DNA from: Candidatus Zixiibacteriota bacterium
GTDB lineage: Bacteria; Zixibacteria; MSB-5A5; UBA10806
Reading direction: 5' to 3'
NCBI GenBank assembly: GCA_020348065.1
Contig: CP070742.1
Coordinates: 2,696,094 to 2,760,093, forward strand
DNA: 64,000 nucleotides
Shown: piece after piece, positions 3,663 through 51,944 of the stretch
Position numbering within the stretch: position 1 is the first letter of the stretch
Layout: each line of letters begins with the position of its first letter
Program-made: the position numbers and the translations under genes
The notes under the pieces: model-generated
What the model was told of the DNA's origin: nothing
Seen by the model: only the letters and a program-made list of their open reading frames with translations
The model's database searches: none

Positions 3663-4224
3663 GCGTTACTGTTTCTCCGAGATTATAGGCGATAATCGCT
3701 TTGCGAACATCCTTGAATTTCAAAATCAACTCGAACAGATAGGCGGTTCCCAATCTTACATTGAGATCCGGATTCCACAGGCCTTTTTTCTGGGGCCAAT
3801 CAATCCCCCATTTTTCGGCAATGCTCTTGCCGATGGAGGGCTTAATCTGCATTAAACCTTCCGCTCCCATATGCGATCTCTGATACCGTTTAAAAGCGCT
3901 TTCGGTTTTTATAACGGCGAGTATGAGCAAAGGATCTATACTGAACTTGACGCTCTCTTCATAAATAACATCGGTTAAGGTCGTAATTTCATCTTCATTA
4001 AACCCGATCTGGTAATCCTCGATAATTTCCAGGATTTTAAGTTTTTCTTCCATCTCCCGGATCTTTTGCGCCTGTTTGTTGATGATCTCTTTTTGATCGA
4101 GGTAGCTCCAGATAAGTAAAATGGTGGCCATCATCTGGAGAGAATATAAAACCAGCAGGAGTATTCCGGCCGGGCGGGATATGAAAATCATCCTGTTTTT
4201 AAATTTTCTCTCCATCAATGACAT
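3556..4224 (-). CDS. Membrane-anchored lytic transglycosylase (SLT domain)
   Basis: It has an N-terminal TM helix. The SLT catalytic motif block is AVIKTESAFKRYQRSHMGAEGLMQI ... AYNLG (E-S, GLMQ, AYN). Confidence 0.75.
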   Translation of the reverse strand: MSLMERKFKNRMIFISRPAGILLLVLYSLQMMATILLIWSYLDQKEIINKQAQKIREMEEKLKILEIIEDYQIGFNEDEITTLTDVIYEESVKFSIDPLLILAVIKTESAFKRYQRSHMGAEGLMQIKPSIGKSIAEKWGIDWPQKKGLWNPDLNVRLGTAYLFELILKFKDVRKAIIAYNLGETVTREYLYLGATPPARYYNRVKKNYLELRRQIEENQNF

Positions 4225-4230
4225 ACCGGT

Positions 4231-5529: not shown

Positions 5530-5614
5530 CGTGATCTTCTACCTCTAAATCCTATGCTAATGTTCCATTATAAATAGATTTAATTAAAAAAAGAAGTGTG
5601 ATTTGATCCGGCGG

Positions 5615-6202
5615 TCACTCGGTTAAATCGATAAATTCATAGCCTTCAGGCAAATCCTCGAAGAATTTGTCGAATTTTGACGGCTTTTTCAGCTTTTCTT
5701 TTTTGAAAAGCATGGTTACCTCGTCCCCTTTAGAGTCAAGATACTGAATCTTACGTATCCTGTTTTTGCCATCGGATATTAATAGCAGGCTTTCCGGAAG
5801 AACACTTCCCAGGCTCTTCAGTTTAAACATAGAATAATCGCCGTTTATACGATGTTCGGCGATGGCATAATTATCATCCCAATTCAAGATGAAATTATAA
5901 GGCATCACGCTGCCATCAGTGGCCTTTTTCTGTATCTGTTTGTGCCTTTTCGACATAACCCAGATGGTATCTCCTATGCCGGCGATCTTTTCGAGTTCGC
6001 TGGAAATTAAGAATGTATCGGGCGGAAAGAAATTGAAGTCAATTAGCGTGGTGTCATGCTCTTCAAAAATCTCCGAATAAACCACCGACTCTATTTTCCA
6101 TTGTATGCCCTCGGCCGATGAATAATGCCGGGAGATTTCATCCAGAAGTTCCACATCGGTAGAACTCAACAATATTAACGACATCAGGAGATTCCGAATC
6201 AT
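5615..6202 (-). CDS. LolA-like outer-membrane lipoprotein carrier / lipoprotein-sorting fold protein
   Basis: 195 aa with an N-terminal signal-like segment. It sits immediately downstream of ftsK and overlaps it (the conserved ftsK-lolA gene pair). Sequence similarity to LolA itself is weak. Confidence 0.45.
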   Translation of the reverse strand: MIRNLLMSLILLSSTDVELLDEISRHYSSAEGIQWKIESVVYSEIFEEHDTTLIDFNFFPPDTFLISSELEKIAGIGDTIWVMSKRHKQIQKKATDGSVMPYNFILNWDDNYAIAEHRINGDYSMFKLKSLGSVLPESLLLISDGKNRIRKIQYLDSKGDEVTMLFKKEKLKKPSKFDKFFEDLPEGYEFIDLTE

Positions 6203-8501: not shown

Positions 8502-11500
8502 TTAATTAAGTGACATAAAAACGTTTGCTCCCCATAAATTCGGTAGACCGTCGTAGTGACCGAAAATGTAAGATCTGGAGATACGATAGGAATTCCAGTA
8601 GCCTTTCCCATCCGCCAGGTTTCGAAGGAATCTCCAATAAAAGGCCGCTTTGATCTCATTCGACAGGTCCCACAGAGGATATATAAACCCGACATTACCG
8701 TCCCGCGCGCTCATGACTGCCTGTAATGCAAGATTTAGATAATTATCTTCGCTGAATGGTTTAACCGTGCAGGCGATATTTCGCTCTCCTTCGTGAGAAC
8801 CATCAAAGAACGAAAAATCCCCGGAGTAGAATCTTACTCTATTGCCGCTTGGCCCGGCAGGCTTTAACAGGGGTTCGGCTATATATTGGATTAAGCGGAC
8901 ATCGGGATCATAACCGGCCTCGAATTCCAGGAACACAGAAGTTCCTTCAAGCGGATCCTTTGGGAATTCCCGCGGCAGGTATATATGCCTTATCAAAATA
9001 AACATCTCCGACAGATAGTCTCCATCCGGCATTTTAAGCGTCTCAAAAGGAAAAGCAAACAGTATGCCATCAGGAATTACCAAAATTCTATCCTTTTCAT
9101 CCAGAAATCTCTCCACGGGAGAAATTATCTCACTGTACCATTTCTCCATGATCGAGTCGGCTTTTTGCTGGTCCGCCAGAAGATCATCCATCATCATAAG
9201 CGATTTACTCAGCTCGTCTTCTTTGAAGCCATACTTATGAATGAAAATCGAATCCTTATCTACATAGGCTGCCATAAAGCCGTTATCGGCCGAGTAAAAT
9301 CTTAGAACGGCCTCATCATCATTCAAATTGCCCTGAAGTTCCTCCACGGAATCCGGCCTTACCCCCCACAATACGCCGTAGGCCAAATTATTTTCCATAG
9401 ATTTAAACTCATTGTCCGTGTATTCTATGTAATCGCGCTCTTTTTCATTCATAAATATATGGTTTAGAATTATATTTTCAGTCGAATCGAAATTCCCGAC
9501 TGAAAAATGCCGTCCCGAGATCTTTTGCGAATAACCCGTCTCCAGATAATTCACCGCCGGACTGGCTCTCTCCTCGCTAATCCTAATTTCTGCAGCCATA
9601 TTATACAGATCGGATCTATCCTCCCATAATCCATGGGCGGCTTTTACATAATCCGGTTCAACAGGATATTCTCTAATTAACCGCTCGGCAGATTCCAGGT
9701 GATTTAATTTAATTTCCTTTTCGGCAATCAACGCCAGATTATAAAATGCCCTCCATTTGAGATATCCCAACGTATTTTTATCGATTGATTTAGAAATTTC
9801 CATAAAATAATTTCCGGCTTTTTTCTTATTGTCTTTTATGACAGCATGATACCCCAGCTGATAACGGCATAGATTCTTGACATATTCCGTTTTCGAATCC
9901 GAAATTATTGCATTATATAGAGAATCCATATCATTACTTCCATTTTCCGAAACCAGCTCTCTTTTATATCTCAGCAGATCCGAAGACTTCCGATATTCAT
10001 AATTACCTATAGCATCTTCCGCCAATCTGTAATCAATCAACGATTTTTCTTTGCGGCCCATAGCTCTATAAATATCGCCCAGCAATTCGTAAGTTTCCAT
10101 TACTATTAATGATTTTCCTCTACCCTTCAATAAGGAGAGACCTTTTTCCGCAGACTCCAGCGCCGATTCGAAATCTCCCCTCATTAAATATATTTTTCCG
10201 AGTAAAACAGCCGCTTCCGCGTTATTTTTATTTTCTTTTAACAATGATTCCAGATTCCGCCTGGCGGATTCGTTTCTAAATGTACCGATATGGTATCTTG
10301 AAAGTTGAATCAGGTACTCGCGATAAATATTATTTTCCCGATCTTTATCTATAAGAACCTCCAGCGAATCGAGCCGCATTTTCGATTTTCCGTACATCTC
10401 CATTAAATTGAATATTTCCGCCAGGTATAATCCCGACCACAATTTATCTTCTATATTATTGGCCGGGAATAGTTCCAGCGATTTTGATAAATCCGCCTGC
10501 GCTTTATCCAGTTCGCCTTTTTCCTTCAGAGCTTTTCCTCGAATGGCAAATCCCTTCGCTCTCATCAAGAAATCTTTCGTTTTTTCCGTTATTTCAATTA
10601 ACATCGTGGCGTAGTCTATGGAGTTTTCCAATTCGTTAATATCATATTTTATTTCCGCCATATCATAATAGATTTTTGCCAGCTGCAGCGAATCGCCCGT
10701 TTTTTCGAAAATCTCAATTAATTTTCCATGATCCCGCTGAATTCTGTAATTATATTCGCCGGTTTTTTCGTATGTTTTCATCAAATTACCGGCGGCGTGC
10801 GCTTTCATCTTACTATCGAACTTTCTGTTACTCACAATATTTAACGCCAGGCTGTAATACTTTTCAGCCATCGCCCAATTTTTCAAAATATAAAACTGGT
10901 TTCCGATCAATACGTATTCATTGAATAGATCTTTAACATGCAGGTCCTCCTCATTTTTGCTCCAGCCATCGTCTCCAAAATATGAAATAATATAACTGTT
11001 ATTATCATTGTTGACGATTGATCCCTGAATGAAAGCCCCGTAATAAGATCTTATTGGCGTACCCGCCTCCAGTCCGTCAAAGAATTTTTTTATATCCGAT
11101 TCCAATGCCGCAGGATCCAGAATATTTTCTATCCTGAGGACGGCATTCACCCCCATGTTTTCGATCAGTTTTATCAATATCGCGTTTTCCGATTCATCCG
11201 GCTCGTTCGCGGGATCAATCAAGATTGCGCCAAAAGCATTATTCTTAATTTTCGGCAGATTTCTTATGGCAAATTTATCCGACCTAATATTATCACCGTC
11301 TCCTCCAAAACGCTCCCAGCTTGAAAAAATAAAGTTTTTATCATCCACGACTAATTTTCCATCAAGAATAATCCAACCGTATTTTGAGAGATCGATTTCA
11401 TATGATGTCGAATCATAATTAATTATGTCCGCTCCAATTTCATCGGCCATTCCGTCCGTCAAAACAAAACCGTCGAATCTCAATATTGCAATCCCGGTTA

Positions 11501-31373: not shown

Positions 31374-31838
31374 TTATACCTCCCCGTCCCCGCCGCAGAT
31401 CCGGCAATCGACCAGTTTTTTCGAATTTGTATGCTCTCCTGCCGCCAGAAGACACTCCGGGCATGATGTCAACCTCACCTTGGCCCCGAACATCTGGCCG
31501 TGTGTCTTATCGTAAGGCGAACCGGCGGCGCAGACCCCGGTGGCGTCACAATGTTCGCAGGGAATTCCCTGTTTTTTCGGTTTTTCGGGTTCTTTCTCAA
31601 TAACCGGTTTTGGTTGCGGTTCAGGTTTGGGTTCAATTTTTTCTTTTTTCTTTACCGCCTTTTTTATGGCTTTCTTTTTAGCGACTTTCTTCTTGGCCGC
31701 CTTTTTTACCGCTGATTTTTTTACGGTCTTTTTGGCGGGAGCTTTTTTGCTTACTTTCTTCTTGGCTGCCGTTTTTTTCTTCGCCGCCTTTTTACCGGAT
31801 ACTTTTTTCTTTGCCGGCATGGTCTCTCCTATTCTCAA
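31374..31838 (-). CDS. Histone-H1-like lysine-rich protein with a Pro-rich linker and a C-terminal Cys-rich zinc-ribbon-like domain
   Basis: 154 aa. The N-terminal roughly 60 aa are (KKAAKKKV)n. Then comes PKPEPQPKP, then 8 Cys arranged as CxxC...C...CxxC...CxxCGGDG (one DnaJ-like CxxCxGxG motif). Confidence 0.5.
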   Translation of the reverse strand: MRIGETMPAKKKVSGKKAAKKKTAAKKKVSKKAPAKKTVKKSAVKKAAKKKVAKKKAIKKAVKKKEKIEPKPEPQPKPVIEKEPEKPKKQGIPCEHCDATGVCAAGSPYDKTHGQMFGAKVRLTSCPECLLAAGEHTNSKKLVDCRICGGDGEV

Positions 31839-33106: not shown

Positions 33107-34348
33107 CTAAAGATTTTCTATTATATGCGTGGCGAACTGGGAGGTGGAAACTTTGGTGGCGCCCTCCATCTGGCGGTGCAGGTCGTAGGTTACGGTTTTA
33201 TTCAATATAGTTTTTTCCATGGAATCCTCGATGCTTTTGGCCGCCTCTTTCCAGCCGAGATAGTTCAGCATCATTACCGCCGAGAGGATAAGCGAACCGG
33301 GATTGACCATATCTTTATCGGCATATTTCGGGGCGGTACCGTGAGTGGCTTCGAAAAGGGCTACGAAATCGGCCATATTCGCCCCGGGCGCCATCCCCAG
33401 CCCGCCAACCTGCGCCGCGCAGGCGTCGGAGAGGTAATCGCCGTTTAAGTTCGGCGTGGCTACAACGTCATATTCGTCGGTGCGTGTAAGAATCTGCTGG
33501 AACATGGAATCGGCGATACGATCCTTTATAAGAATCCTGCCTTCCGGTATTTCCCCCTTGTATTTGCTCCAGAGTTCATCCTCGGATACAGTCTGCGTGG
33601 AAAACTCCTTGGCGGCCAGCTTGTAGCCCCAGTCGCGGAACGCGCCCTCGGTATATTTCATGATATTGCCCTTGTGAACCAGAGTCACCGAAGGGCGATT
33701 ATTCTCGAGGGCGTACCTGATGGCCTTGCGAACCAACCGCTGCGTGCCGGTTACAGAGATCGGTTTGATGCCGACACCGGAGTCACTTCTGACCTTAACC
33801 TTCATACTTTTATTGAGGAAATCGATTATTTTTTTGGCGTCCTTGGTCCCCCTGGCCCATTCTATTCCGGCGTAAACGTCTTCGGTGTTTTCCCTGAAAA
33901 TAATCACGTTCATTTTTTCGGGATGTTTCACCGGAGAGGGAACGCCCTGAAAGTAACGAACCGGCCGTACGCAGGCATAGAGCTGTAGCACCTGCCTTAA
34001 GGTTACATTCAGGGAACGGTATCCTCCCCCTACGGGCGTCGTTAAAGGTCCTTTTAAGGCAATTATAAACTGTTTTATGGCGTTGAATGTATCTTTCGGC
34101 AAAACCTCTCCGTATCGCTCCAGCGCCGCCTCGCCGGCGTATATATCAAACCAGACAATCTCTTTCCTGCCGGCGTACGATTTTTCAACGGCGGCATCAA
34201 CGACGCGGCGGGTCGCTTTCATAATATCCCGGCCGATACCGTCGCCCTCTATTACCGGAATAATGGGATTGGATGGCACTTTGAGCCTATTGTTTGCTAT
34301 CGTAATCGGTTTCCCGTTTTTGGGAGGCTCAATCATCTTGAACTTCAC
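33107..34348 (-). CDS. icd: NADP-dependent isocitrate dehydrogenase (homodimeric, E. coli type)
   Basis: 413 aa. It aligns near end-to-end with E. coli Icd ([41 protein letters not shown][L/I]SD, GTAPKYA). Confidence 0.92.
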
Positions 34349-34369: not shown

Positions 34370-34951
34370 TCAATTAACATTATCTATCTTAATCCTGTTT
34401 ATGTTCGAATCTCCGATAACGCCGTTAACGGTTAATAATAGCTTCTTTTCCGATGATCCGAAATTATCATCGGTATGATGGAGTTTCTGAAAAAAACCGT
34501 CCCTTCGAAGGTCATCAAATCCTATACCCCCTACGATAGACCGCGAAGAAAGTTTTACCGCCAATTTATCCGGAATTTTTATTCGTATATCGCCCACCAA
34601 CGACGACGCGCTTATTTTATTTTCGCCGGTTTTAAAATCGGCAGCGGTAAGATCGATTTTAATATCGCCGATCAGGACGAAGTAATGGTGATCCGTTACC
34701 TGTTTGCCGCTTAAAGTAATATCCTGATCGCCGAAAAAACTATTCTCGGAGGCAAACCCACCCGATCCAACACTACCTCTAATTCTTCTCCGGTTTCTAA
34801 TAATATAAATCCCCAGGGCTATCAACGCGATGGGCCAGAGCTTCCAGATGAAATCCCAGAAGTCGAAACCGCCAAAGACATTGTCTATCAAGACAAGCAC
34901 GCCGATAGCTATAATCAGCGTGCCGATAATTCTGTTGGTCTTAGATTTCAT
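34370..34951 (-). CDS. LiaF-like membrane protein (N-terminal TM pair plus C-terminal beta-rich toastrack-like domain)
   Basis: 193 aa with two N-terminal TM helices. The C-terminus has repetitive GDI.I../GGI beta-strand patterns, as in the LiaF/DUF2154 C-terminal domains. Confidence 0.4.
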   Translation of the reverse strand: MKSKTNRIIGTLIIAIGVLVLIDNVFGGFDFWDFIWKLWPIALIALGIYIIRNRRRIRGSVGSGGFASENSFFGDQDITLSGKQVTDHHYFVLIGDIKIDLTAADFKTGENKISASSLVGDIRIKIPDKLAVKLSSRSIVGGIGFDDLRRDGFFQKLHHTDDNFGSSEKKLLLTVNGVIGDSNINRIKIDNVN

Positions 34952-34974: not shown

Positions 34975-35172
34975 CTATTTCTTGCCCGTACTCCTATCAG
35001 CGATCATACCGATACCGATTATGATCAGGGCCAGCGGCCACCAGGTGCCGATAAAATCGCCCAGATCGAACCTGACGATATCGAGATTGTCGCCGATCAT
35101 CAGAGCCCCGACGATGATAAACGCCAATCCCCACAGGATACCCGAAGTTTTCCGGCGCATTTTTGACTCCAA
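34975..35172 (-). CDS. Small two-TM membrane protein, paralogous to the N-terminus of the adjacent LiaF-like protein
   Basis: The 65-aa ILWGLAFIIVGALMIGDNLDIVRFDLGDFIGTWWPLALIIIGIGMI aligns with IIGTLIIAIGVLVLIDNVFGGFDFWDFIWKLWPIALIALGIYII of the 193-aa neighbour. Confidence 0.4.
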   Translation of the reverse strand: MESKMRRKTSGILWGLAFIIVGALMIGDNLDIVRFDLGDFIGTWWPLALIIIGIGMIADRSTGKK

Positions 35173-35180
35173 AAGATTAA

Positions 35181-35678
35181 CTAATCCAGCTTAAAATCAC
35201 CGTGCTTTTTAATATGCGAGACCAGGCCGCCGTCATTTAAAATTTTGATCATAGTAGGCGGCAGAGGCTTAAACTCCAGTTCCTTGCCGTTGGTCAGATC
35301 TTTAATCCTTCCGGTTTCGAGATCGATCTCGAGTTCGTCCCCGGCGTCAATCTGATCGGTATCGCAAATCAAAACCGGTAAACCGACATTTATCGAATTG
35401 CGGAAGAATATCCGGGCGAAAGATTTCGCCAGCACCGCAGATACTCCGGCCAGATGAATAATCGTCGGCGCGTGTTCTCTCGAAGACCCCAGACCGAAAT
35501 TGTTGCCGCCCACCACGAAATCGCCGGCCGACATTTTGGACGCGAATTCCGGATCGGCGTCCTCCAGAACGTGTTTGGCGAGCTCCGGCAGATCCGAGCG
35601 AAGATGAAAATACCGTCCGGGAGCGATATGATCCGTCGAAATATCGTCACCGAATTTCCATGCTTTTCCTTTCAGCAT
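35181..35678 (-). CDS. leuD: Aconitase-family hydratase small subunit, LeuD type 2 (3-isopropylmalate/homoaconitate dehydratase-like)
   Basis: 165 aa. It has the swivel-domain motifs GDDISTDHI.P and VGGNNFGLGSSREHA. Confidence 0.8.
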   Translation of the reverse strand: MLKGKAWKFGDDISTDHIAPGRYFHLRSDLPELAKHVLEDADPEFASKMSAGDFVVGGNNFGLGSSREHAPTIIHLAGVSAVLAKSFARIFFRNSINVGLPVLICDTDQIDAGDELEIDLETGRIKDLTNGKELEFKPLPPTMIKILNDGGLVSHIKKHGDFKLD

Positions 35679-35689
35679 TTTATCTCCTC

Positions 35690-37396
35690 CTACCTTCTGC
35701 CGGTTCTTTTTGTGGTTTTCTTAGCCGCTTTTCTCGCGACTTTCTTCACCGCCTTCTTCTTAACGACCTTTTTGGCGGCCTTCTTCTTTACCGCTTTCTT
35801 CTTTGCCGTGTTCTTTTTCGCGGCATTCTTTTTGGTCGCCTTTTTCGTAGAGTTTTTAGGCGGTTTTGAGCTCAATGCGTCTTTAATAGCCCTGGTCGCA
35901 TCGGCAGCGAGTTTGGTTAAGGTTTTTTCAAAATCCTCCGCCGCTTTTCGTACTTTGGGGCCATATTGTTCGGTCGCTTTTCTTGCGACCTTTTCGACTG
36001 TATCCGAAGCCTCTTTCGCCCTCGGACCCAAAACCGTAGCCGTATCCGAAGCCACTCTCTCGATCGTTTTCTGCGCGGATTGCGCCACCGCTTTCAAAGC
36101 CATGGTATCAACAATTTGCGGTTTACCTATGGTTTTTAGTTCTTTTGCGTACTTACGAGGATCGGCTATCACACCCTCAATCGCTGTCGCCGCAATAACC
36201 GCCGGCGATCCGAGGTATATCTCCGCGTTAGGATTTCCCATCCTGCCATGAAAATTCCTGTTCATGGTGGTGAGGCTAATCTCACCATCGGCTGGAATGC
36301 CGCCGTGAATCCCAACACAGGGTCCGCAGCCGGGCGGAACCATTACGGCGCCGAACTCTACCAGCGTTTTATAGTACCCCAGGTCCATGACCTCCTTCAT
36401 CACCTCAACGGAGCCCGGGATGGCTATAAACCGCATTCCCGGAGCGATTTTTTTCCCTTTAACGATTTTCGCCACGACTTCCCAGTCTTCTGTCCTGGAA
36501 TTCGTACAGGTTCCCAAAAATACCTGGTCGATTTTTATTCCGGCGGCTTCGTCAATTGTATAAGTATTATCGACGGTATGAGGGTAACTGACCGTGGGAG
36601 CCAATGTCGAAACGTCGATTTCAATAACGCGTTCGTATTCCGCGTCGCTATCCGCTTTAAGCGGTATCCATTTGTCTCCCCTGCCCCGCGATTCCAGATA
36701 TTTTTTCGTGGTCTCGTCCGACGCTATCAATCCCGCTTTTGCGCCGGCCTCCACCGCCATGTTGGACAAAGTAAACCGCGAAGACATATCCATCTCTTCG
36801 ATCGTCGGTCCGCAGAATTCGAGAGATTTATAAGTTGCCCCATCCGCTCCGATTGTGCCGATCAGATGAAGAATCAGGTCCTTGGGAAATACGCCGAGAG
36901 GGAATGTCCCGGTGACATATACTTTAAAGGATTCCGGAACCCTGAACCAGCTTTTTCCATAAGCCGCTCCGATGGCGACATCCGTGGAACCCATTCCGGT
37001 CGAAAAGCAGCCCAGCGCGCCCCCGGTGCAGGTGTGGCTGTCGGCTCCTATTAATATTTGACCCGGCACAACATAATCCTCATTGATTACCACATGACAA
37101 ATCCCTTTGCCGACTTCCGAAAGCTGAGCCCCGGTTTTTCTGCAAAAATCCCTGATGAATTTATGGTCATTGGAGAGTTCTTTACGGGATGAGGGCGCCG
37201 AGTGATCCAGGAAAAATACGACCCTGTCGGGATTCGCCAATTTGTCCACCCCCAGTTTCTCAAGCTGCCTGATGGCCAGAGGACCGGTTCCGTCCTGAAA
37301 GAGGCAAAGATCTACGTGTGCGATTGCTATCTCTCCGGCAGAAACGTCATGTCCCGCGTGAGAACCAAGGATTTTTTCAGCAAGAGTCTTGCCCAT
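35690..37396 (-). CDS. leuC: Aconitase-family hydratase large subunit (LeuC type) with a C-terminal amphipathic-helical extension of about 150 aa that ends in a lysine-rich histone-H1-like tail
   Basis: 568 aa. The core has the Fe-S ligand context GADSHTCTGGALG ... GTCTNSR ... GCGPCVG. After residue 420 or so comes a helical low-complexity region. The final 55 aa are KKATKKNAAKKNTAKKKAVKKKAAKK... Confidence 0.8.
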   Translation of the reverse strand: MGKTLAEKILGSHAGHDVSAGEIAIAHVDLCLFQDGTGPLAIRQLEKLGVDKLANPDRVVFFLDHSAPSSRKELSNDHKFIRDFCRKTGAQLSEVGKGICHVVINEDYVVPGQILIGADSHTCTGGALGCFSTGMGSTDVAIGAAYGKSWFRVPESFKVYVTGTFPLGVFPKDLILHLIGTIGADGATYKSLEFCGPTIEEMDMSSRFTLSNMAVEAGAKAGLIASDETTKKYLESRGRGDKWIPLKADSDAEYERVIEIDVSTLAPTVSYPHTVDNTYTIDEAAGIKIDQVFLGTCTNSRTEDWEVVAKIVKGKKIAPGMRFIAIPGSVEVMKEVMDLGYYKTLVEFGAVMVPPGCGPCVGIHGGIPADGEISLTTMNRNFHGRMGNPNAEIYLGSPAVIAATAIEGVIADPRKYAKELKTIGKPQIVDTMALKAVAQSAQKTIERVASDTATVLGPRAKEASDTVEKVARKATEQYGPKVRKAAEDFEKTLTKLAADATRAIKDALSSKPPKNSTKKATKKNAAKKNTAKKKAVKKKAAKKVVKKKAVKKVARKAAKKTTKRTGRR

Positions 37397-37471: not shown

Positions 37472-38401
37472 CTAATAACCGATAATCTTCAGCGTTTCTT
37501 TGTATGTTTCAGCTGAATGCTGTAACGATTTTAATTCCTCGTCATTTAACTTTATTTCGAGAATTTTCTCGACACCGTCCTTGCCGATAACAATGGGAAC
37601 CCCGATATAAAGGTCCTTCACGCCGTACTGACCGGTCAGGTAAACGGAGCAGGGCATAACTCTTTTACGGTCGCGAATAACCGAATCGACCATCTCCGTG
37701 GTGGCTGCCGCGGGAGCATAATAAGCGGAACCGGTTTTCAACAGCTTAACTATCTCGCCGCCTCCCACCCGGGTTCTATCGGAGATGGCCTGGATTTTAT
37801 CCTCCGGCAACAACTCGGTTATCGGAATGCCGGATACCGTAGTATACCGCGGCAACGGAACCATTGTATCACCATGCCCGCCGAGTACCATGGCCTGGAC
37901 ATCAGCGACGGAAACGCCGAGCTCCCAGGCCACAAAAGTCCTGAAGCGAATTGAATCGAGAACTCCTGCCTGTCCAAAAACCCTGTGGTTCTCGAAACCG
38001 GTGATTTTCCAGCAGTGGTAGGTCATTATGTCAAGCGGATTCGCCACCATGATTACCATCGCTTTGGGGGCATACTTTTTAATATCTTTAGAAACGGCGC
38101 CTATAATATCGGCATTGGATGTTATCAAATCTTCACGCGACATACCCGGTTTACGAGGCAAACCGGCGGTATGAACCACTATATCGGAGCCTTTTATATC
38201 AGCAAAATCGTTAGAACCGGTGATCACGGTTTCATAGCCATGAACGGGACCGGCCTGGCAAAGATCGAGCCCTTTGCCCTTTGGCATATCCTCAACAATA
38301 TCAATAATGGTAATATCGCAGATATTCTTTTCCGCGAGATACATCGCGGTACACTCGCCCACATGCCCGGCACCAATAACCGTTACTTTCGGTCTCATCA
38401 A
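37472..38401 (-). CDS. mdh: Malate dehydrogenase (LDH-like, NAD-dependent)
   Basis: 309 aa. It has the Rossmann motif VTVIGAGHVG, an Arg in the substrate-loop position (GLPRKPGMSR), and the catalytic His block (GGHGDTMVP). Confidence 0.9.
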   Translation of the reverse strand: MMRPKVTVIGAGHVGECTAMYLAEKNICDITIIDIVEDMPKGKGLDLCQAGPVHGYETVITGSNDFADIKGSDIVVHTAGLPRKPGMSREDLITSNADIIGAVSKDIKKYAPKAMVIMVANPLDIMTYHCWKITGFENHRVFGQAGVLDSIRFRTFVAWELGVSVADVQAMVLGGHGDTMVPLPRYTTVSGIPITELLPEDKIQAISDRTRVGGGEIVKLLKTGSAYYAPAAATTEMVDSVIRDRKRVMPCSVYLTGQYGVKDLYIGVPIVIGKDGVEKILEIKLNDEELKSLQHSAETYKETLKIIGY

Positions 38402-39645
38402 ATTCCTCCTTTTACGTCGATCCTTTCAGGAACCAAAAAACACGCATCTCTCAAAACAGCAATATTAGCTGTGCCGCCGAAATAATCAAGAGCATCTCTT
38501 AACGCGTCCTGCGGCGAACATTTCGGCACAAAATACACTTTTCTAATTACGTTGTCATCCAATTTCGTAACATACCAGATTTTTATTTTTTCAAGCCGCC
38601 TGGCGGTCTTGATAAGTTTGTGAATTCCAAAGCGGTTATCGATCAATGCCGCATCCGATAAGGCTGTCTCAGGAGTCGGGTAATTCTCCGCCAGCTCAAC
38701 GAAATAAGGCGACCCGATACCCTCATCACAGGCCCCAACCACAACTATTATGCCGCCGTCGGATACCGCTTCAGCCCCGTGCTCCTGCGCTTTTTGCAGC
38801 TGATATAGATTAATATCAAGAGGATATTCGCCAATAGCGAACACGATATCGAAAGTTTTGGTTATCGGTATAGAATATATATCCCGCGCCAGCTTCGAGG
38901 CCTTGAGAAAGGTATCCTTAAGATTTCCGCAAAACAGGTCTATAATTTCGCCTTTTCGCGATAATACGAGCTGGATTGAAAATATCGGCGCTTTAACAAC
39001 CATGTCGGCAGCTTCCACGAGGTCAAGATGCACCGGGTTATTCTCGAGATTAAGGCTCTTCGCCTTCTCCGATTTGGCCAGGCTGTGATTGGCGACTACG
39101 GTCTCCCGTCCCGCCAGCCCGGGAACAATCGATTTTCTGCCTCCTGTAAACCCGGCGAAAAAATGGGGTTCGACGGAGTTAATGCATATAACTGCTTCGG
39201 CTTCCAGGAATTTCCGGTTTATCTCTACCGTCGTACCAGATGATGTTAACCCGATTCTCTCCAGATGGTTTTTATCATCACAATTATGACTTGCGACTTT
39301 CGATTTCAATTTATCATACAGGTCGCCAAGTATCTGTTTCAGGTTTTCTTCCGTAAGAACATCATGAGTGCCGGTTGCCGCGAGAATCCGGACGTTATCA
39401 ACCGGCAGAAAATCAAGCAGGATTTTAAGGATTTTCTCTGTGGGGACTCTTCTGGTTATATCGTTTATAATTATTAAGACTTTTTTGCCGCCGAATTCCT
39501 TACGGCGGTCCAGATACTCTTTTTCGATTTTAGCATATACCTCGCTATCCGGAATAGGCCTATGATCATTGCCCGACAATATCGCGGTATCGTCGGGAAA
39601 TTCCATCTTGATGATTTCACCGCCGTATGGGAAATCTATCGTCAT
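38398..39645 (-). CDS. larA: LarA-family nickel-pincer-nucleotide-dependent 2-hydroxyacid racemase/epimerase (lactate racemase homolog)
   Basis: 415 aa. LarA catalytic/cofactor residues are conserved in context: ATGTHD (His), FFAGFTGGRK (the NPN-tethering Lys), and ANHS (second His about 16 aa later). The stop overlaps the mdh start (ATGA). Confidence 0.65.
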   Translation of the reverse strand: MTIDFPYGGEIIKMEFPDDTAILSGNDHRPIPDSEVYAKIEKEYLDRRKEFGGKKVLIIINDITRRVPTEKILKILLDFLPVDNVRILAATGTHDVLTEENLKQILGDLYDKLKSKVASHNCDDKNHLERIGLTSSGTTVEINRKFLEAEAVICINSVEPHFFAGFTGGRKSIVPGLAGRETVVANHSLAKSEKAKSLNLENNPVHLDLVEAADMVVKAPIFSIQLVLSRKGEIIDLFCGNLKDTFLKASKLARDIYSIPITKTFDIVFAIGEYPLDINLYQLQKAQEHGAEAVSDGGIIVVVGACDEGIGSPYFVELAENYPTPETALSDAALIDNRFGIHKLIKTARRLEKIKIWYVTKLDDNVIRKVYFVPKCSPQDALRDALDYFGGTANIAVLRDACFLVPERIDVKGGI

Positions 39646-39654
39646 TTTGGCAGA

Positions 39655-40059
39655 TCAGGAAAAGAAAAAAGCTATTTCGGTTTTGGCGGATTCCTCGCCG
39701 TCGGAGGCGTGGACGGAGTTTTTGGTGAGGCTCAGTGCAAAATCGTGGCGAATGGTGCCCGGAGCCGCTTTCGCGGGATCCGTGGACCCGATTAGAGATC
39801 TGATTTTCGATACCGTATCACCGTCGGATTCCAGAACCATGGCGACGATGGGGCCGGAGGACATGAATTGACACAGTTCTTCAAGAAAAGGCCGCCCCTC
39901 ATGGACTGCATAAAATTTCCTTGCCTCGTCATAAGTTAATCTGACCATTTTCATGGCAAGGATTTTAAATCGCGCCGATTCCAACCGCGAAATAATCCGG
40001 CCAATAAGATCTCGTTCAATCGCATCCGGCTTAATTATCAAAAGCGATTTTTTTCTCAC
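39655..40059 (-). CDS. ndk: Nucleoside diphosphate kinase
   Basis: 134 aa. It has the NDK active-site region ...NSVHASD... and an overall family match. Confidence 0.9.
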   Translation of the reverse strand: MRKKSLLIIKPDAIERDLIGRIISRLESARFKILAMKMVRLTYDEARKFYAVHEGRPFLEELCQFMSSGPIVAMVLESDGDTVSKIRSLIGSTDPAKAAPGTIRHDFALSLTKNSVHASDGEESAKTEIAFFFS

Positions 40060-40624
40060 TCCAGATTCTCCTGGATTCTAAACCAAGCTTAAAACCGAGA
40101 TCGCAGGCCATTTTGTTTTTTTCCTCGGTTCCGAGCGGCGCGCGATCCAGAACCGCATTTTCAATAGATTCCCTGGAACAGATTCCTGAAATGGCCGCCA
40201 CCGCCGCAAGTGATACCACGTTAGCGACTACGGGAGTCCCGACCTTTTCCCTTGCCGTATTTATAAAAGGAAGCGCATGCGCTTTCTGGGTTGGAAGCTG
40301 GCGGACTCTATCGGAATCGACAATCAATAATCCCTCTTCCTTCAGATCCCCGAAATACCCGTCGCAGGATTCTTGTGTCAAACATAGTAATAGATCGAGC
40401 TCGGTTGTCTTGGGGTAATAGATTTCGCCATCGGAAATAACTATATCCGATCTTGACGCTCCGCCGCGCGCCTCGGGGCCGTAAGACTGTGTCTGAGTTA
40501 CATTTTTCCCTTCATAGACGCCCATAGCCTCCGCCAGTATAACACCGGCAAGAACAAGCCCCTGCCCCCCGGAACCCGAGAGACGGATTTCATATCTGCC
40601 GTTATCTTCCTCGGTCTTTTTCAT
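40031..40624 (-). CDS. korC: 2-oxoglutarate:ferredoxin oxidoreductase gamma subunit
   Basis: 197 aa with the GSGGQG motif of the OFOR gamma family. The operon order D-A-B-C matches oorDABC. Confidence 0.7.
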   Translation of the reverse strand: MKKTEEDNGRYEIRLSGSGGQGLVLAGVILAEAMGVYEGKNVTQTQSYGPEARGGASRSDIVISDGEIYYPKTTELDLLLCLTQESCDGYFGDLKEEGLLIVDSDRVRQLPTQKAHALPFINTAREKVGTPVVANVVSLAAVAAISGICSRESIENAVLDRAPLGTEEKNKMACDLGFKLGLESRRIWSEKKIAFDN

Positions 40625-40659
40625 TATCTTCTCATTCGTTCAAATCAAAATCGGATAAT

Positions 40660-41523
40660 CTAAGATTCCTGCAGCTGCCGATTCTCTTCCTCTTCCTCAT
40701 TAAACTTGTCGATGATTTTTTGATATTCGCTTACATATTCCGGCCTGAAAACCTCATGCAGCTTGCCGGTAACAAATTTGCCCTCCAGCTCCTCCCTGGT
40801 CATTCTAGCGGCGGCAGACGCCGGCACCGCATATTCCTTTTGCCATTGAATCATCTTAACCGCCGATCCTTCGCGATTGAGCCGTCCGTATTGCGTATGG
40901 CAATTTGAAATCACTTCCACAAAAGAAAATCCATTATGGGAAATCGCCTGGCTGATAAGGCGGGACAATTGCGAGGCATGATATACCGTGCCCCTGGCAA
41001 CATAGGTCGCGCCCGAGGATTTGGCCAGGTCCGAGGGATCGAATGATTGCTCGATCATTCCATAAGGAGCGGTGGAGGCGTTTTTGGCGAAAGGCGTCGT
41101 GGGAGAATACTGCCCGCCGGTCATACCGTATATGTAGTTATTCACAAGGATGCAGGTGATATCAATGTTTCTCCGGGCGGCGTGAATAAAATGATTTCCG
41201 CCGATGGCCAGAAGATCCCCGTCTCCCGATATAACTATTACATGCAGTTTGGGATTGGCAAGTTTTACGCCGGTGGCAAACGCGATCGCCCTGCCGTGAG
41301 TTGTATGCAGAGTATTAAAATCGAGATATACCGGGATTCGAGCGGTGCAGCCTATACCCGACACCACGGACACATCATCTTTATTAAAGTTAAGCGAATC
41401 AATAGCCCGGATTAGAGCCCCCATGGCTATACCTATCCCGCATCCCGGGCACCAGACGTTGGGAAACGTCTTCTTGGGTCTTAAATATTTATGTGTAACG
41501 TTGGATACCTGCTCAACCATCAA
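40660..41523 (-). CDS. korB: 2-oxoglutarate:ferredoxin oxidoreductase beta subunit (TPP-binding)
   Basis: 287 aa with the TPP motif GDGD...N.IYGMTGGQ and N-terminal Cys ligands. Confidence 0.8.
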   Translation of the reverse strand: MMVEQVSNVTHKYLRPKKTFPNVWCPGCGIGIAMGALIRAIDSLNFNKDDVSVVSGIGCTARIPVYLDFNTLHTTHGRAIAFATGVKLANPKLHVIVISGDGDLLAIGGNHFIHAARRNIDITCILVNNYIYGMTGGQYSPTTPFAKNASTAPYGMIEQSFDPSDLAKSSGATYVARGTVYHASQLSRLISQAISHNGFSFVEVISNCHTQYGRLNREGSAVKMIQWQKEYAVPASAAARMTREELEGKFVTGKLHEVFRPEYVSEYQKIIDKFNEEEEENRQLQES

Positions 41524-42695
41524 TGACGCTCCTCTTTTAACTTGTCGAGTATCTGCTGAGGAGTGATCAATTCGCCGTCAAACCTGTTTAAACCGATGAT
41601 TTTCACATGACGATATCGTAATCTCTTAACTTCTCTGATGATCTGCCCCTGATTCAACTCGGGCACAATGACCAGATCCACCCGCTCCAGGTATTCTCTT
41701 ACAATCTGATCCGGGAACGGCCAGATGATCCTGGGCTGTATCAAACCGACCTTAAAGCGTCTTTTGCGCGCCATCCTGATAGCCTGCCGGGCGGCGCGCG
41801 CCGTCGAACCATACGCGAATATCATTATATGAGCGTCATCCATCATTTCCACTCTAACGTCGGTCAACTCATCCAGGTGTCTCATAGTTTTCAATCTGAG
41901 TTTTTCGAGTTTTCTGACTATTTCAGTCTTGCTGGCCGTGGGAAATCCATATTCATCGTGAGTCAAACCGGTCAGGTGAAACCTGTAACCCTCTCCGAAA
42001 GACGCCATAGGCGAACGAAAATCCGGGGTAATTTCAAAATGCTTATACCATTCGGGAGGTTCGTACGGTTTCGGAACCGTTACAATATTCAGTTCCTCCT
42101 GAGACGGTAATTTAACTATTTCCCTCATATGTCCCAGAACTTCATCGGAAAGCACGGTAACAGGTATCCGGTATTCTTCCGATAGACTGAACGCTTTAAC
42201 CGTATAATCAAAACACTCTTTTACCGATGAGGGTACGATAACGATAGGGAAATAATCACCATGCGTACCCCATTTGGATTGCATAACATCGCCCTGAGCG
42301 ACTTTCGTCGGCAATCCGGTCGACGGGCCTCCGCGCATAACATTAACGATGACGCACGGAACCTCCGCCATATAGGCATAACCGAGATTTTCCTGCATCA
42401 AGGAATAGCCCGGTCCGGATGTCGATGTCATGGCCTTGGCGCCCGCGATAGAGGCTCCGATAATGGCGGCGATGGACGCTATTTCATCTTCCATCTGAAT
42501 AAACTTTCCGCCCACCCTGGGCAGAAGCCTGGAAAGTATTTCGGCGATTTCGGTTGAAGGCGTGATAGGATAACCGGCAAAGAAACGACAACCCGCGGCC
42601 AGGGCGCCGAGCGCGCAGGCTTCGTTTCCCTGCATTAAGAGCGGCACATTTTCTTTATAGAATGATTTTTTGCGTTTCGTTTCGACTTCAGCCAA
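41520..42695 (-). CDS. korA: 2-oxoglutarate:ferredoxin oxidoreductase alpha subunit
   Basis: 391 aa. It has the OFOR alpha domain pattern and overlaps korB by 4 nt. Confidence 0.8.
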   Translation of the reverse strand: MAEVETKRKKSFYKENVPLLMQGNEACALGALAAGCRFFAGYPITPSTEIAEILSRLLPRVGGKFIQMEDEIASIAAIIGASIAGAKAMTSTSGPGYSLMQENLGYAYMAEVPCVIVNVMRGGPSTGLPTKVAQGDVMQSKWGTHGDYFPIVIVPSSVKECFDYTVKAFSLSEEYRIPVTVLSDEVLGHMREIVKLPSQEELNIVTVPKPYEPPEWYKHFEITPDFRSPMASFGEGYRFHLTGLTHDEYGFPTASKTEIVRKLEKLRLKTMRHLDELTDVRVEMMDDAHIMIFAYGSTARAARQAIRMARKRRFKVGLIQPRIIWPFPDQIVREYLERVDLVIVPELNQGQIIREVKRLRYRHVKIIGLNRFDGELITPQQILDKLKEERH

Positions 42696-42716
42696 GTTTT
42701 ACCTCACCCATATCTA

Positions 42717-42980
42717 TCATTTTTCCGAAGACGTTATGGCAAATTCAGGGCAATGCAGCCAGCATATGGAACATTGAGTGCAGTCAAGACCCCTGGTCAC
42801 AACGGGATAACCATCTCGATCCGTATCGAAAACCTTTTGCGGACACATTTCAACACATATAAAACAGGCTTTACACCATTTTTTGTATATAACTACGGGG
42901 TCGGAACGTTTTTTCCACTTCTTTTTTACTTCTACCTTTTCGGTGTCTGCCATTTGAGATACTCTTTTGGTTAGAACCAA
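42717..42980 (-). CDS. korD: 2-oxoacid:ferredoxin oxidoreductase delta subunit (2x[4Fe-4S] ferredoxin)
   Basis: 87 aa with two CxxCxxC...CP motifs (CKACFICVEMCP; CTQCSICWLHCP). Confidence 0.75.
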   Translation of the reverse strand: MVLTKRVSQMADTEKVEVKKKWKKRSDPVVIYKKWCKACFICVEMCPQKVFDTDRDGYPVVTRGLDCTQCSICWLHCPEFAITSSEK

Positions 42981-42986
42981 TCCGAC

Positions 42987-44063
42987 TTACTTCCTTTTCA
43001 AGATTATTTTCTGTTTCTTTTTAACTGCGACCTTCTTTTTTGCCGTTTTCTTAGTCGCTTTCTTTTTTGTGGTCTTTTTTGTCTTCTTTACGACCTTCTT
43101 CGCCGTTTTTTTTGCCTTCTTTATAACCTTTTTCACCGTCTTCTTTTTGGCGGCCTTCTTTTTCGCTTTTTTATGAGCCGCTTTTTCCCTGACTGCTTCA
43201 AGTTTCTCTTTTAAAAGTATCGGCAACTGGGACGGAATATCCGCCACCGGAACACCGACGCTGTTCAAAGCTGCAATTTTATCGCCCGCCAAACCGGAGG
43301 AGCCCGAAATAATGGCACCGGCATGCCCCATTCTCTTTCCGGGAGGTGCGGTACGTCCGGCAATGAACCCGACGACCGGCTTTTTCATCTTCTTGTCAAT
43401 GAACTCCGCGGCCATCTCCTCGTCGGAGCCGCCAATTTCCCCAATCATAACAACTGCCTCGGTTCCCGGATCGTTCTCGAAAGCTTCAAGACAATCGATA
43501 AAATTAGTGCCGATTATCTGGTCTCCGCCTATACCGATACATGTCGATTGACCGAAACCGGCCAGGGTTAGATTGTATACGACCTCGTAGGTCAAGGTTC
43601 CAGAACGCGAAACGACGCCTATTTTCCCCTTTTTATGGATCTGGGCCGGCATTATGCCGACCTTGGTCAATCCCGGAGAAATAATTCCCGGACAATTCGG
43701 TCCGATAAGACGGATGCCTCTATGTTTTAAGAAGTGATATATCTTCATCATATCGTTTGCCGGGATGCCTTCAGTTATGCATACGATCAGTTTTATGCCT
43801 GCGTCCGCGGCTTCATAAATGGCGTCGACGGCAAAAGCGGGAGGAACGTAAATGATGGACGTATTGGCCCTTGTCGCTTTGACAGCCTCCTTCATGGAAT
43901 CAAAAACAGGTATGTCATCCAGTTTGGTTCCGCCTTTACCCGGCGTTACGCCGCCCACTATTTTGGTACCGTATTTAACCATCTGACGAGTATGGAACGC
44001 CCCGTCTCGTCCGGTTATGCCCTGAACTATCACTCTGGTTTTATTATCTGCAAAAATAGCCAT
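42987..44063 (-). CDS. sucD: Succinyl-CoA synthetase alpha subunit with a lysine-rich histone-H1-like C-terminal tail of about 70 aa
   Basis: 358 aa. The core has the CoA-binding site and the phosphohistidine loop (MGHAGAI). After residue 290 or so the sequence is [26 protein letters not shown]... Confidence 0.9.
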
Positions 44064-44093
44064 TTTTCTACCTCTTATTTTAACTATCAGCTT

Positions 44094-45224
44094 TTAGGCC
44101 GCTTTTTCCAACGCCATTTTAACGGCTTCTTCCATGGATGTAGTCGCCTGCAGTCCCACGCTTTTTAAAATCTGCCTGGCTTCATCCTCGTTGGTACCTG
44201 TTAACCTGACCACAATAGGGACATTGGGGTGAAGATGCTCGACAGCCTGAACAATACCGTTGGCCACATCATCACATCTGGTTATACCTCCGAAAATATT
44301 GAATAGAATAATTTTCACTTTCGGTTCCCCGATAATAATTTTCATGGCCGTTATGACTTTTTCGGGAGACGATGATCCGCCGATATCAAGGAAATTGGCC
44401 GGTTCGCCGCCGAAATGCTTGACCAGATCCATGGTAGCCATGGCCAGACCGGCCCCGTTGACACAGCAACCGACATTGCCGTCGAGCTTGACAAAGGAAA
44501 GATCCGCCTTTTTTGCTTCGATTTCGTCCGGATCTTCGGCGTCGAGATCGCGGAATTCCTCAAGATCAGGATGACGATACAAGCCGTTATCGTCAAGGTT
44601 AATCTTGGCATCAAGAGCGATCAGCTTGCCTTCCCTGTCGACTATCAGGGGATTTATTTCGGCGAGAGACGCGTCGCTGTGAATAAAAACATCATATAAT
44701 TTTAGAATAATAGAGGCACACTGGCGCGCGAGTTTGAAATCATCATATACGAACATCCCCAGCCGCGTGGCCTCGAATCCACGAAGACCCATGATGGGAT
44801 TGACCTCGAATTTCATGATCTTTTCGGGAGTTTCCCTGGCCACCTGCTCGATATCGATTCCTCCCGCTGGAGAAACCATCACCACTGCCTTTTTCGATAC
44901 GCGGTCCAGAATAATCCCGACATACGCTTCATTGACTATATCCAGGGCTTCCGAAACAAGAATCTTTTTTACCGGTAATCCCTTTATCTCCATTTTAAGT
45001 ATTTCCTCGGCGTTGAAATAAGCGTCATCCGGTTCGGCGCAGTATTTTATGCCACCGGCCTTGCCCCTGCCACCGACGTGCACCTGCGCTTTGACCATGA
45101 CTGCTTTCTCATACTTTACGGCCAGTTGCCGCGCTTCCTCCGCAGAATTCGTCACATCTCCTTTGGGAATCGGAATGCCGAACCTGGCGAAGATTTCCTT
45201 GGCCTGATATTCGTGTATTTTCAT
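44094..45224 (-). CDS. sucC: Succinyl-CoA synthetase beta subunit (ATP-grasp)
   Basis: 376 aa, beginning MKIHEYQAKEIFARFGIPIPKG, the canonical SucC start. Confidence 0.9.
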   Translation of the reverse strand: MKIHEYQAKEIFARFGIPIPKGDVTNSAEEARQLAVKYEKAVMVKAQVHVGGRGKAGGIKYCAEPDDAYFNAEEILKMEIKGLPVKKILVSEALDIVNEAYVGIILDRVSKKAVVMVSPAGGIDIEQVARETPEKIMKFEVNPIMGLRGFEATRLGMFVYDDFKLARQCASIILKLYDVFIHSDASLAEINPLIVDREGKLIALDAKINLDDNGLYRHPDLEEFRDLDAEDPDEIEAKKADLSFVKLDGNVGCCVNGAGLAMATMDLVKHFGGEPANFLDIGGSSSPEKVITAMKIIIGEPKVKIILFNIFGGITRCDDVANGIVQAVEHLHPNVPIVVRLTGTNEDEARQILKSVGLQATTSMEEAVKMALEKAA

Positions 45225-51482: not shown

Positions 51483-51944
51483 TTATTTATTTACATCGTC
51501 TCTTGAAATCGTGCTTGTGTCCTCAGGCTTTTCCCTGCCGAATAATTTTCTAAAAAACCGTTTCCTTTTGGCCCAACGCGCTTTTTTTTCAGCCCTGTAT
51601 TTTTTCTTCAGCTCTTTCTCTTTCTGGAATTGAACAGCATCGAGCTCCTCGATTTTCTGCAGAAGCCTCTCCACGTTATCCCGTTTTTCCATCATGCGCC
51701 GAAACGTATTGTATCTGGAAATATCCTTGAAAACAGCCTGCACAAACGGCTCCAGAAAAACCATGGCCTGGGAACCTAAATAATTTAACGGCTTGACGGT
51801 TTCCAGGGTAAGGATGGCGGGGACAGTAAATCCTTTCCTGACAATAAAATCGGCAAGCTTGAACAGCACCTCCTGTTCGTTCTTGCTTAACGTTTCCTCC
51901 TCGGGCGGAAGTTCGTAGCTTCCGAACGGCGATTTATGAGCCAT
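51483..51944 (-). CDS. Hypothetical protein with a basic C-terminus
   Basis: 153 aa. It overlaps the upstream ORF by 11 nt. I recognise no domain. Confidence 0.35.
   Translation of the reverse strand: MAHKSPFGSYELPPEEETLSKNEQEVLFKLADFIVRKGFTVPAILTLETVKPLNYLGSQAMVFLEPFVQAVFKDISRYNTFRRMMEKRDNVERLLQKIEELDAVQFQKEKELKKKYRAEKKARWAKRKRFFRKLFGREKPEDTSTISRDDVNK

Follow-up and report, generated by a model that had tools for sequence, protein, structure and literature searches.

Two adjacent minus-strand open reading frames (ORFs) in a 64,000-nucleotide stretch of DNA from a Candidatus Zixiibacteriota bacterium (GenBank assembly GCA_020348065.1, contig CP070742.1, positions 2,696,094 to 2,760,093; hereafter, the window) probably encode a heterodimeric aconitase of the tricarboxylic acid (TCA) cycle. 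We put the probability of this reading, which is drawn from sequence comparison, at roughly three in four. The proposed large subunit is a 568-residue, LeuC/HacA-type protein of the aconitase family (35690..37396), and the proposed small, swivel-domain subunit is a 165-residue protein of the archaeal LeuD/HacB type (35181..35678). A first-pass annotation of the window had described a LeuCD-type pair inside a block of icd, mdh, larA, ndk, korDABC, and sucDC genes and had suggested that it probably stands in for aconitase in the TCA cycle and does not belong to the leucine pathway. The pair and the block were found as described. The suggested role, which we also infer, is supported by Gln34 of the large subunit, by a small-subunit loop containing Arg27, and by the genomic context across 79 loci.

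The aconitase reading is preferred because the discriminating residues are in the aconitase state and because the partner genes belong to the citrate-to-2-oxoglutarate segment or to the wider TCA cycle. The two ORFs would form a [4Fe-4S] aconitate hydratase that interconverts citrate, cis-aconitate, and isocitrate. It would serve the TCA-type pathway of the operon and exchange isocitrate, in either direction, with the NADP-isocitrate dehydrogenase encoded next to it. The same role is likely in many other anaerobes. Both the reaction and the superfamily are familiar; what appears to be new is a distinct two-subunit clade with a lineage-specific appendage.

Family membership and specificity residues

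Membership in the aconitase family was observed directly. So were the conservation of catalytic and cluster residues, the residues at both discriminating positions, and the synteny. The large subunit matched the Pfam family PF00330 (Aconitase) with E=1.3e-99, and the superfamily partner, PF00694, was matched with E=1.6e-16. Three NCBIfam subfamily models, PRK00402, hacA_fam, and IPMI_arch (516 bits), span residues 1-414 of the large subunit. The small subunit scored 196 bits on TIGR02087 (LEUD_arch), compared to a cutoff of 109, in agreement with its earlier description as a 165-residue, archaeal-like LeuD. Only subfamily-level NCBIfam models were passed by both subunits, and every equivalog model was below its cutoff.

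The catalytic core, residues 1-414 (36155..37396), was aligned to pig mitochondrial aconitase (mAcn). The mAcn numbering was validated through PDB alignments, in which Q72, D100/H101, H147, D165-H167, N258, C358, C421/C424, and N446/R447 land exactly. All 14 of the residues aligned to mAcn D100, H101, H147, D165, S166, H167, N258, E262, C358, C421, C424, N446, R447, and R452 are conserved, with Cys297, Cys357, and Cys360 as the ligands of the [4Fe-4S] cluster, and the GSSRE motif is present in the small subunit. Since these catalytic and cluster residues are common to the whole family, they do not discriminate among its enzymes.

Two positions do discriminate. The comparison with isopropylmalate isomerase (IPMI), homoaconitase (HACN), and aconitase that had been suggested in the first-pass annotation gave Gln at the first, the position of mAcn Gln72, and Arg at the second, with the spacing of AcnB R191. 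The first position is Gln in pig mAcn, E. coli AcnA, E. coli AcnB (Q414), and the window protein (Gln34, codon at 37295..37297), and it is His in E. coli LeuC, M. jannaschii IPMI (MJ0499), and M. jannaschii HACN (MJ1003). A 2026 survey lists AcnB Q414 among the active-site residues (PMC13147460). All 112 readable homologs have QD at this position, and Q was found in every clade member sampled.

The second position, Arg27, lies in the substrate-recognition loop of the small subunit, PGRYFHLRSDLP (residues 20-31; 35586..35621). A passage in PMC7308503, citing Jeyakanthan 2010, attributes specificity in this family to the small-subunit recognition loop. The window loop reads YFHLRS, with an invariant Arg, and is not of the hydrophobic YLVY type found in IPMI. 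Across phyla, the clade loop PGR[LY]FHLR[ST][ND]LPELA is near-invariant. IPMI enzymes have V, Y, L, or T at the position of the loop Arg, never Arg. Compared to three solved archaeal LeuD/HacB structures, the loop has one extra residue, and Arg27 is found at +12 from the T of the TD anchor, the same spacing as in AcnB (T179 to R191), compared to +13 in mAcn (T567 to R580) and +10 in HACN (R26). By analogy with mAcn structures, Gln34 and Arg27 may bind the third carboxylate of a tricarboxylate substrate. In the proposed enzyme, Gln34 and Arg27 in the lengthened loop would replace the His and the hydrophobic residues of IPMI.

Most homologs are named 3-isopropylmalate dehydratase large subunit in the JGI and NCBI databases, and the best PDB match is M. 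jannaschii IPMI. Both observations favor an ordinary leucine-pathway IPMI that sits by chance in a TCA operon. However, the IPMI equivalog cutoffs were missed by the large subunit (TIGR02083 LEU2, 466 vs 611 bits; TIGR00170 leuC, 238 vs 560) and by the small subunit (TIGR02084 leud, 187 vs 246 bits; TIGR00171 leuD, 46 vs 116). The loop hydrophobics are replaced by Arg and the His by Gln, and the context is that of the TCA cycle across phyla. Neither leuB nor a synthase reaching any leuA model cutoff was adjacent in any of the 79 usable loci from the best 80 of at least 595 relatives. We consider an ordinary IPMI to be extremely improbable.

Another possible explanation is a promiscuous hydro-lyase, which would act as aconitase and also as the only isopropylmalate or citramalate isomerase of the cell. 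Archaeal-type LeuCD enzymes are known for dual specificity, to which a paper on the P. horikoshii LeuD structure, cited in PMC8184944, refers in its title, and the overall similarity to IPMI_arch is high, as the score given above indicates. However, the invariant loop Arg and the Gln favor a carboxylate over an alkyl gamma-group, and a leu gene was adjacent in none of the clade loci examined. Jeyakanthan and colleagues reportedly found in 2010 that HACN gained IPMI activity only once the loop Arg was replaced (R26V or R26K), which also counts against promiscuity. We regard a dual role as unlikely.

The M. jannaschii enzymes, IPMI (MJ0499/MJ1277; PDB 4kp1, 4nqy, 3vba) and HACN (MJ1003/MJ1271; PDB 4kp2, 2pkp), were the best PDB matches (E=5e-106 and 1.6e-49). 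They resemble the window pair in having two subunits, a large one of about 415 residues and a small one of about 165, and in sharing the catalytic and Fe-S residues and the GSSRE motif. In a neighbor-joining tree, the clade of the window protein is tight and monophyletic, with 55-72% identity across domains, and stands apart from the M. jannaschii IPMI and HACN, to which identity is 41-42%. The clade also differs from them in having Gln rather than His at the mAcn-72 position, CT[GSA]G rather than CTHG, and a loop that is one residue longer with its Arg at +12. Finally, the window pair has a TCA context instead of leucine or coenzyme B genes and carries a C-terminal extension.

TCA gene neighborhoods in the window and across the clade

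The block in the window runs sucC-sucD-korD-korA-korB-korC-ndk-larA-mdh-large subunit-small subunit-LiaI-like-LiaF-like-icd, all on the minus strand, with intergenic gaps of -29 to +75 nt. The icd gene (33107..34348) encodes an NADP-isocitrate dehydrogenase (TIGR00183, 671.7 bits vs a cutoff of 567.3), and mdh (37472..38401) encodes malate dehydrogenase (TIGR01763, 458.7 bits vs 351.85). A LarA-family nickel-pincer 2-hydroxyacid racemase homolog (38398..39645; PF09861 and PF21113) follows, and the rest of the block, ndk, korC, korB, korA, korD, sucD, and sucC, was assigned by profile matches (39655..45224).

The earlier remark that neither leuA nor leuB is nearby was borne out. A tblastn search of the 64-kb window with E. 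coli LeuA, LeuB, AcnA, and AcnB, as well as Si-citrate synthase and homocitrate synthase (HCS)-type queries, returned nothing further, and no leucine-related Pfam domains were found among 20 further ORFs of the window. Scans of the window for tRNAs and Rfam families gave no matches. Terminator-like sites within the operon were not in excess (14 vs 19.2 in shuffled sequences), and the excess of promoter-like sites was below 2 standard deviations (26 vs 18.6, sd 4.0). These scans are consistent with a single transcription unit but are not evidence for one.

To place the pair among its relatives, one genome per GTDB species was scanned with the patterns DSHTCTGGA and [AC]F[AS]TGMGST, taken from the alignment, and at least 595 relatives were confirmed. 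The context sample consisted of the best 80 of these (55-71% identity), of which 79 loci were usable; ORFs were called, neighbors were clustered, and cluster representatives were annotated. Bacteria among the best 80 belong to the Zixibacteria, Ignavibacteria, Gastranaerophilales/Melainabacteria, WOR-3, Dehalococcoidia and other Chloroflexi, Elusimicrobia, Aminicenantia, Planctomycetia, Actinomycetota, Bacillota, Thermodesulfobacteriota, and Hydrothermota. The archaea are Methanosarcinaceae (Methanolapillus, Methanosalsum) and one DHVE2 archaeon. The clade spans at least 10 bacterial phyla in addition to the Methanosarcinaceae and DHVE2 archaea. The nearest large-subunit homologs are proteins from Zixibacteria metagenome-assembled genomes (MAGs), with up to 94% identity.

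The small subunit adjoins the large one in 32 of the 79 loci, and 25 of those 32 have TCA-type neighbors. A synthase of the HCS/isopropylmalate synthase (IPMS) family was a neighbor in 28 loci, mostly immediately upstream, and an isocitrate dehydrogenase (IDH)-family dehydrogenase in 20. Less frequent neighbors were Si-citrate synthase (seven loci; TIGR01800, 518 bits vs a cutoff of 421), malate dehydrogenase (five), KOR (two), and succinyl-CoA synthetase (one). The whole sucCD-kor-ndk-larA-mdh-large-small-liaF-icd block is kept in L002, whose large subunit has 59% BLAST identity to that of the window, and in L086, L087, and L091.

The synthase and dehydrogenase neighbors bear on the main rival explanation, a homoaconitase or chain-elongation hydro-lyase. 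Such an enzyme would interconvert homocitrate and homoisocitrate and, together with an HCS-type synthase and a homoisocitrate dehydrogenase, lead to 2-oxoadipate for lysine synthesis through alpha-aminoadipate (AAA) or for 2-oxoacid elongation. It shares the loop Arg and could, in principle, pair with HCS-type synthases. The loop Arg of the window protein is followed by Ser (LRS), similar to the LRT motif of HACN, where Thr follows. The small subunit scored 194.6 bits on HacB2_Meth, near its best score, and the synthase found, mostly directly upstream, in 28 clade loci passes no NCBIfam model and has the NifV homocitrate synthase as its top match.

However, both subunits missed the HACN equivalog cutoffs (NF040615, 422 vs 550 bits; NF040625, 195 vs 230; NF040604, 149 vs 230; NF010629, 143 vs 229). 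M. jannaschii HACN has His at the Gln72 position and a YLRT-type loop of different length, compared to which the window loop is one residue longer and has its Arg at +12 rather than +10. The window dehydrogenase is an equivalog-level NADP-IDH, and its neighbors are mdh, kor, and suc genes, not genes of AAA lysine or coenzyme B synthesis. Elsewhere in the clade, a bona fide Si-citrate synthase adjoins in the seven loci mentioned above, and the neighboring 335-residue dehydrogenases matched NAD-IDH models (437 and 423 bits) better than those for homoisocitrate dehydrogenase (371) or LeuB (204). The HCS-family neighbors themselves are ambiguous and could be Re-citrate synthase or homocitrate synthase, since Re-citrate synthase belongs to this family and is routinely given the name of homocitrate synthase or isopropylmalate synthase (PMC12016533). 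Taken together, we consider homoaconitase quite improbable.

The LarA homolog raises the question of a different substrate, such as 2-methylcitrate/2-methylisocitrate or maleate/D-malate, possibly tied to a LarA-type racemase. The larA gene lies two genes upstream of the large subunit and overlaps the mdh start by 4 nt; its top NCBIfam match is malate racemase (300 bits, under the cutoff of 500). HACN and IPMI hydrate maleate to D-malate, and the family includes dimethylmaleate hydratase (DmdB in the name of TIGR02087). Against this stand the lack of prp genes nearby and the limited distribution of larA, which among the loci examined adjoins only in Zixibacteria operons and in L034 and is not clade-wide. 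The clade-wide partners are citrate synthase and IDH. Another di- or tricarboxylate substrate is thus very unlikely. The LarA homolog is kept at the same position in L002, L086, L087, and L091, and it may racemize D/L-malate or another 2-hydroxyacid in connection with the TCA cycle.

Several points weigh against a TCA aconitase. The curated aconitase models (AcnA, AcnB, mAcn, PRK07229, TIGR01342) were all missed; the best of them, PRK07229, gave 397 bits with the large subunit and 93 bits with the small subunit, compared to a cutoff of 612. Over the whole sequence, IPMI and HACN are closer relatives than any proven aconitase. The His side of the Gln/His correlation consists of just three characterized large subunits, and the loop Arg is a signature of HACN as well. 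In many loci, the HCS-family synthase and the 335-residue IDH-like gene could, in principle, be homocitrate synthase and homoisocitrate dehydrogenase. The content of acn and leu genes was surveyed for the 64-kb window, and no enzymology was found in the literature for any member of the clade.

Compared to the canonical aconitases, mAcn, AcnA/IRP1, and AcnB, the proposed aconitase has the same predicted reaction, the equivalents of Gln72/Q414 and Arg580/R191, the Arg spacing of AcnB, and a place beside icd and other TCA genes. It differs in consisting of two polypeptides instead of one four-domain chain, with about 32% core identity to mAcn, and in scoring far below the cutoffs of the equivalog models for AcnA, AcnB, and mAcn. 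The fused "putative aconitase" of the PRK07229/TIGR01342 type (clostridia, Aquifex, Pyrococcus) is a related LeuCD/HacAB branch, and the large subunit aligns to positions 1-454 of the 647 in the PRK07229 model. In C. thermocellum, the Re-citrate synthase gene adjoins the aconitase gene (PMC6115520). The same kind of operon, with a Re-citrate synthase-like gene beside the proposed aconitase gene, is seen in the clade. In contrast to this type, the clade has two genes, and hacA_fam and IPMI_arch score higher than PRK07229 in a comparison by model.

Several clade loci depart from the common arrangement. In 13 of them (L018, L024, L025, L027-L029, L036, L039, L041, L043, L047, L053, L081), mostly from Gastranaerophilales or gut MAGs, the large subunit is followed by an extracytoplasmic function (ECF) sigma factor and an anti-sigma factor with no small subunit, which must lie elsewhere. 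A second, divergent large-subunit paralog was found near the clade gene in three gut MAGs of the Melainabacteria/Gastranaerophilales type (L067, 12587-13864; L075, 3439-4704; L082, 4380-5657). These paralogs are 45-47% identical. At the Gln72 position they carry Asn, CTYG takes the place of CT[GSA]G, and no small subunit adjoins them. In the complete genome L001 (CP070813.1, a 3.83-Mb Zixibacteria chromosome; 10001-11466), the orthologous large subunit is annotated as partial, with 487 residues and its N-terminus missing, and the mdh...sucC block upstream is replaced by unrelated genes (Pirin, DUF6064). This reflects either a rearrangement breakpoint within the gene or an assembly problem. In L086 (a 239-kb contig; 3402-6707), sucD, korA, and korB are each broken into two ORFs, probably by assembly frameshift errors and not for biological reasons.

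C-terminal appendages and the Lia-like genes

The large subunit continues beyond the catalytic core with 94 residues predicted to be helical (415-508; 35873..36154) and a 60-residue, K/R-rich, histone-H1-like tail predicted to be disordered (509-568; 35690..35872, including the stop codon). The first-pass annotation had noted an amphipathic helical extension of about 100 residues before a K-rich tail, and this description held. Residues 415-508 form three segments punctuated by G-K-P or G-P, of which helices 2 and 3 are strongly amphipathic, with hydrophobic moments of 0.49 and 0.59 compared to a core mean of 0.18. The last 50 residues of the protein contain 26 K+R and no D/E. AlphaFold2 predicted helices at 431-455 and 464-508 and a disordered tail, with a pLDDT below 50 throughout the extension, which is undocked from the core.

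More than 50 clusters (at 90% identity) from JGI, ENA, NCBI, and Logan share the extension, in which E446, P458, Y478, and L496 are invariant. This conservation at the amino-acid level in four sources ruled out an assembly or frameshift artifact. In relatives, the appendage is modular: some have only a long K tail (80-110 residues), some have a short one (38-48 residues), and many have none (proteins of 416-418 residues).

The same annotation had likened the extension to apolipoprotein, LEA, or phasin repeats. The likeness in composition stands, but homology to these families does not. With Pfam at E<=10, the extension and the SucD tail described below gave only sub-threshold noise. The top match of the extension was Apolipoprotein (PF01442; 16.7 bits vs a cutoff of 90, E=0.006), and phasin, LEA, and HC2 (PF07382) did not match it at this threshold.

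An exhaustive HMMER search of 1.84 billion representatives with the helical module returned only 10 matches. Eight of these are the large subunit: six fragments (P0121-P0126), the full-length P0008, and the 573-residue P0127, which was counted by its match position (419-511, the same place as in P0008) and was not itself inspected. The remaining two were a spurious repeat match and a BON-domain lipoprotein with similar GP-punctuated repeats (E=6e-4). Since almost all the matches are the large subunit itself, the helical module is a lineage-specific invention. A word-indexed search with the module alone scored 36 candidates, none of them significant, but it also missed known homologs and is thus uninformative.

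A similar tail, which the first-pass annotation had missed, is found at the C-terminus of SucD (residues 294-358; 42987..43184). It comprises 65 K-rich, histone-H1-like residues with 36 K+R and no D/E, and it is kept in L002, L087, and L091 (SucD of 374, 363, and 365 residues, respectively). Apart from the large subunit, no enzyme of the window but SucD carries a tail of this kind. In a set of 234 ORFs taken from ten Zixibacteria-type loci, K-rich tracts were confined to four proteins: the large subunit and SucD, an HC2-like protein, and a 153-residue ORF. This ruled out K-rich tails as a general feature of the proteome.

The latter two proteins are also encoded on the minus strand of the window. 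The HC2-like protein (31374..31838; 154 residues) has a K-rich, HC2/histone-H1-like N-terminal half (PF07382, 29.9 bits, under the cutoff of 40) and a Cys-rich C-terminal part, in which CEHCDATG and CRICGGDG, of the CxxCxxxG type, resemble DnaJ-type zinc fingers. It is present in L001 too. The 153-residue ORF (51483..51944) has a K/R-rich C-terminal segment and no Pfam match.

Two genes between the small subunit and icd, also overlooked at first, encode a 65-residue LiaI-like protein with two transmembrane segments (34975..35172) and a LiaF-like membrane protein (34370..34951; PF09922 and PF22570). Such membrane proteins are odd company for central-metabolism genes. Homologs of the LiaI-like protein with the Pfam domain LiaI-LiaF-like_TM1 occur in the same position in L001, L086, and L087, and the LiaF-like gene has a conserved position in L001, L002, L003, L086, and L091. 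All six loci with the helical module, as well as one locus with only a K tail, have LiaI-like and/or LiaF-like genes in the interval from the small subunit to icd. Loci without the extension lack these genes. The loci are phylogenetically related, and the association is thus a lead and not a statistic.

PhaF/PhaM-type proteins, which tether granules to the nucleoid, have an amphipathic phasin domain and a histone-H1-like AKP tail. The extension resembles them in the order of its parts, with an amphipathic helical segment first and a K/A-rich, H1-like tail after it. It differs in that there is no sequence homology, the module is carried by an enzyme, and no polyhydroxyalkanoate genes were seen in the window; the comparison is a lead only. 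In this Zixibacteria lineage, the large subunit has gained a flexible amphipathic-helix module and a polybasic tail, and SucD a polybasic tail. In the proposed scheme, these would tether both enzymes to a polyanionic surface, which could be the membrane (possibly via LiaIF), the nucleoid or RNA, or polyphosphate. Tethering to an anionic surface is speculative, although it is the most likely function of the tails.

Aconitase annotation and the organization of the TCA cycle

Current surveys count AcnA and AcnB only (PMC13147460). In the literature searched, no paper describing a heterodimeric or two-subunit aconitase was found, nor was anything specific on the aconitase of Zixibacteria or Dehalococcoides or on LeuCD as an aconitase. 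A bolder reading is that the tails, the helical module, and LiaI/LiaF make up a lineage-specific scaffold, which would hold TCA enzymes at the membrane (via LiaIF) or at the nucleoid, RNA, or polyphosphate and so form a spatially ordered TCA metabolon. The enzyme would then found a third class of TCA aconitase, heterodimeric and widespread among anaerobes. We hold this combined proposal to be doubtful, if worth entertaining.

Genomes that rely on the clade enzyme may be scored as lacking aconitase, with a broken TCA cycle. For example, "missing aconitate hydratase" is how a Chloroflexi genome with Re-citrate synthase was described (PMC3971608). Members of the clade are found in Melainabacteria, Dehalococcoidia, Elusimicrobia, WOR-3, Zixibacteria, Planctomycetia, Methanosarcinaceae, and other groups. 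The reading matters in practice for metabolic reconstruction. The two-residue signature, Gln34 and the FHLR loop, would permit re-annotation. If the aconitase reading is true, aconitase specificity is housed in a LeuCD/HacAB scaffold, which would provide a case for the study of enzyme evolution. The histone-like tails, carried specifically by two enzymes of the same TCA operon, could show how central metabolism is localized in a bacterium.

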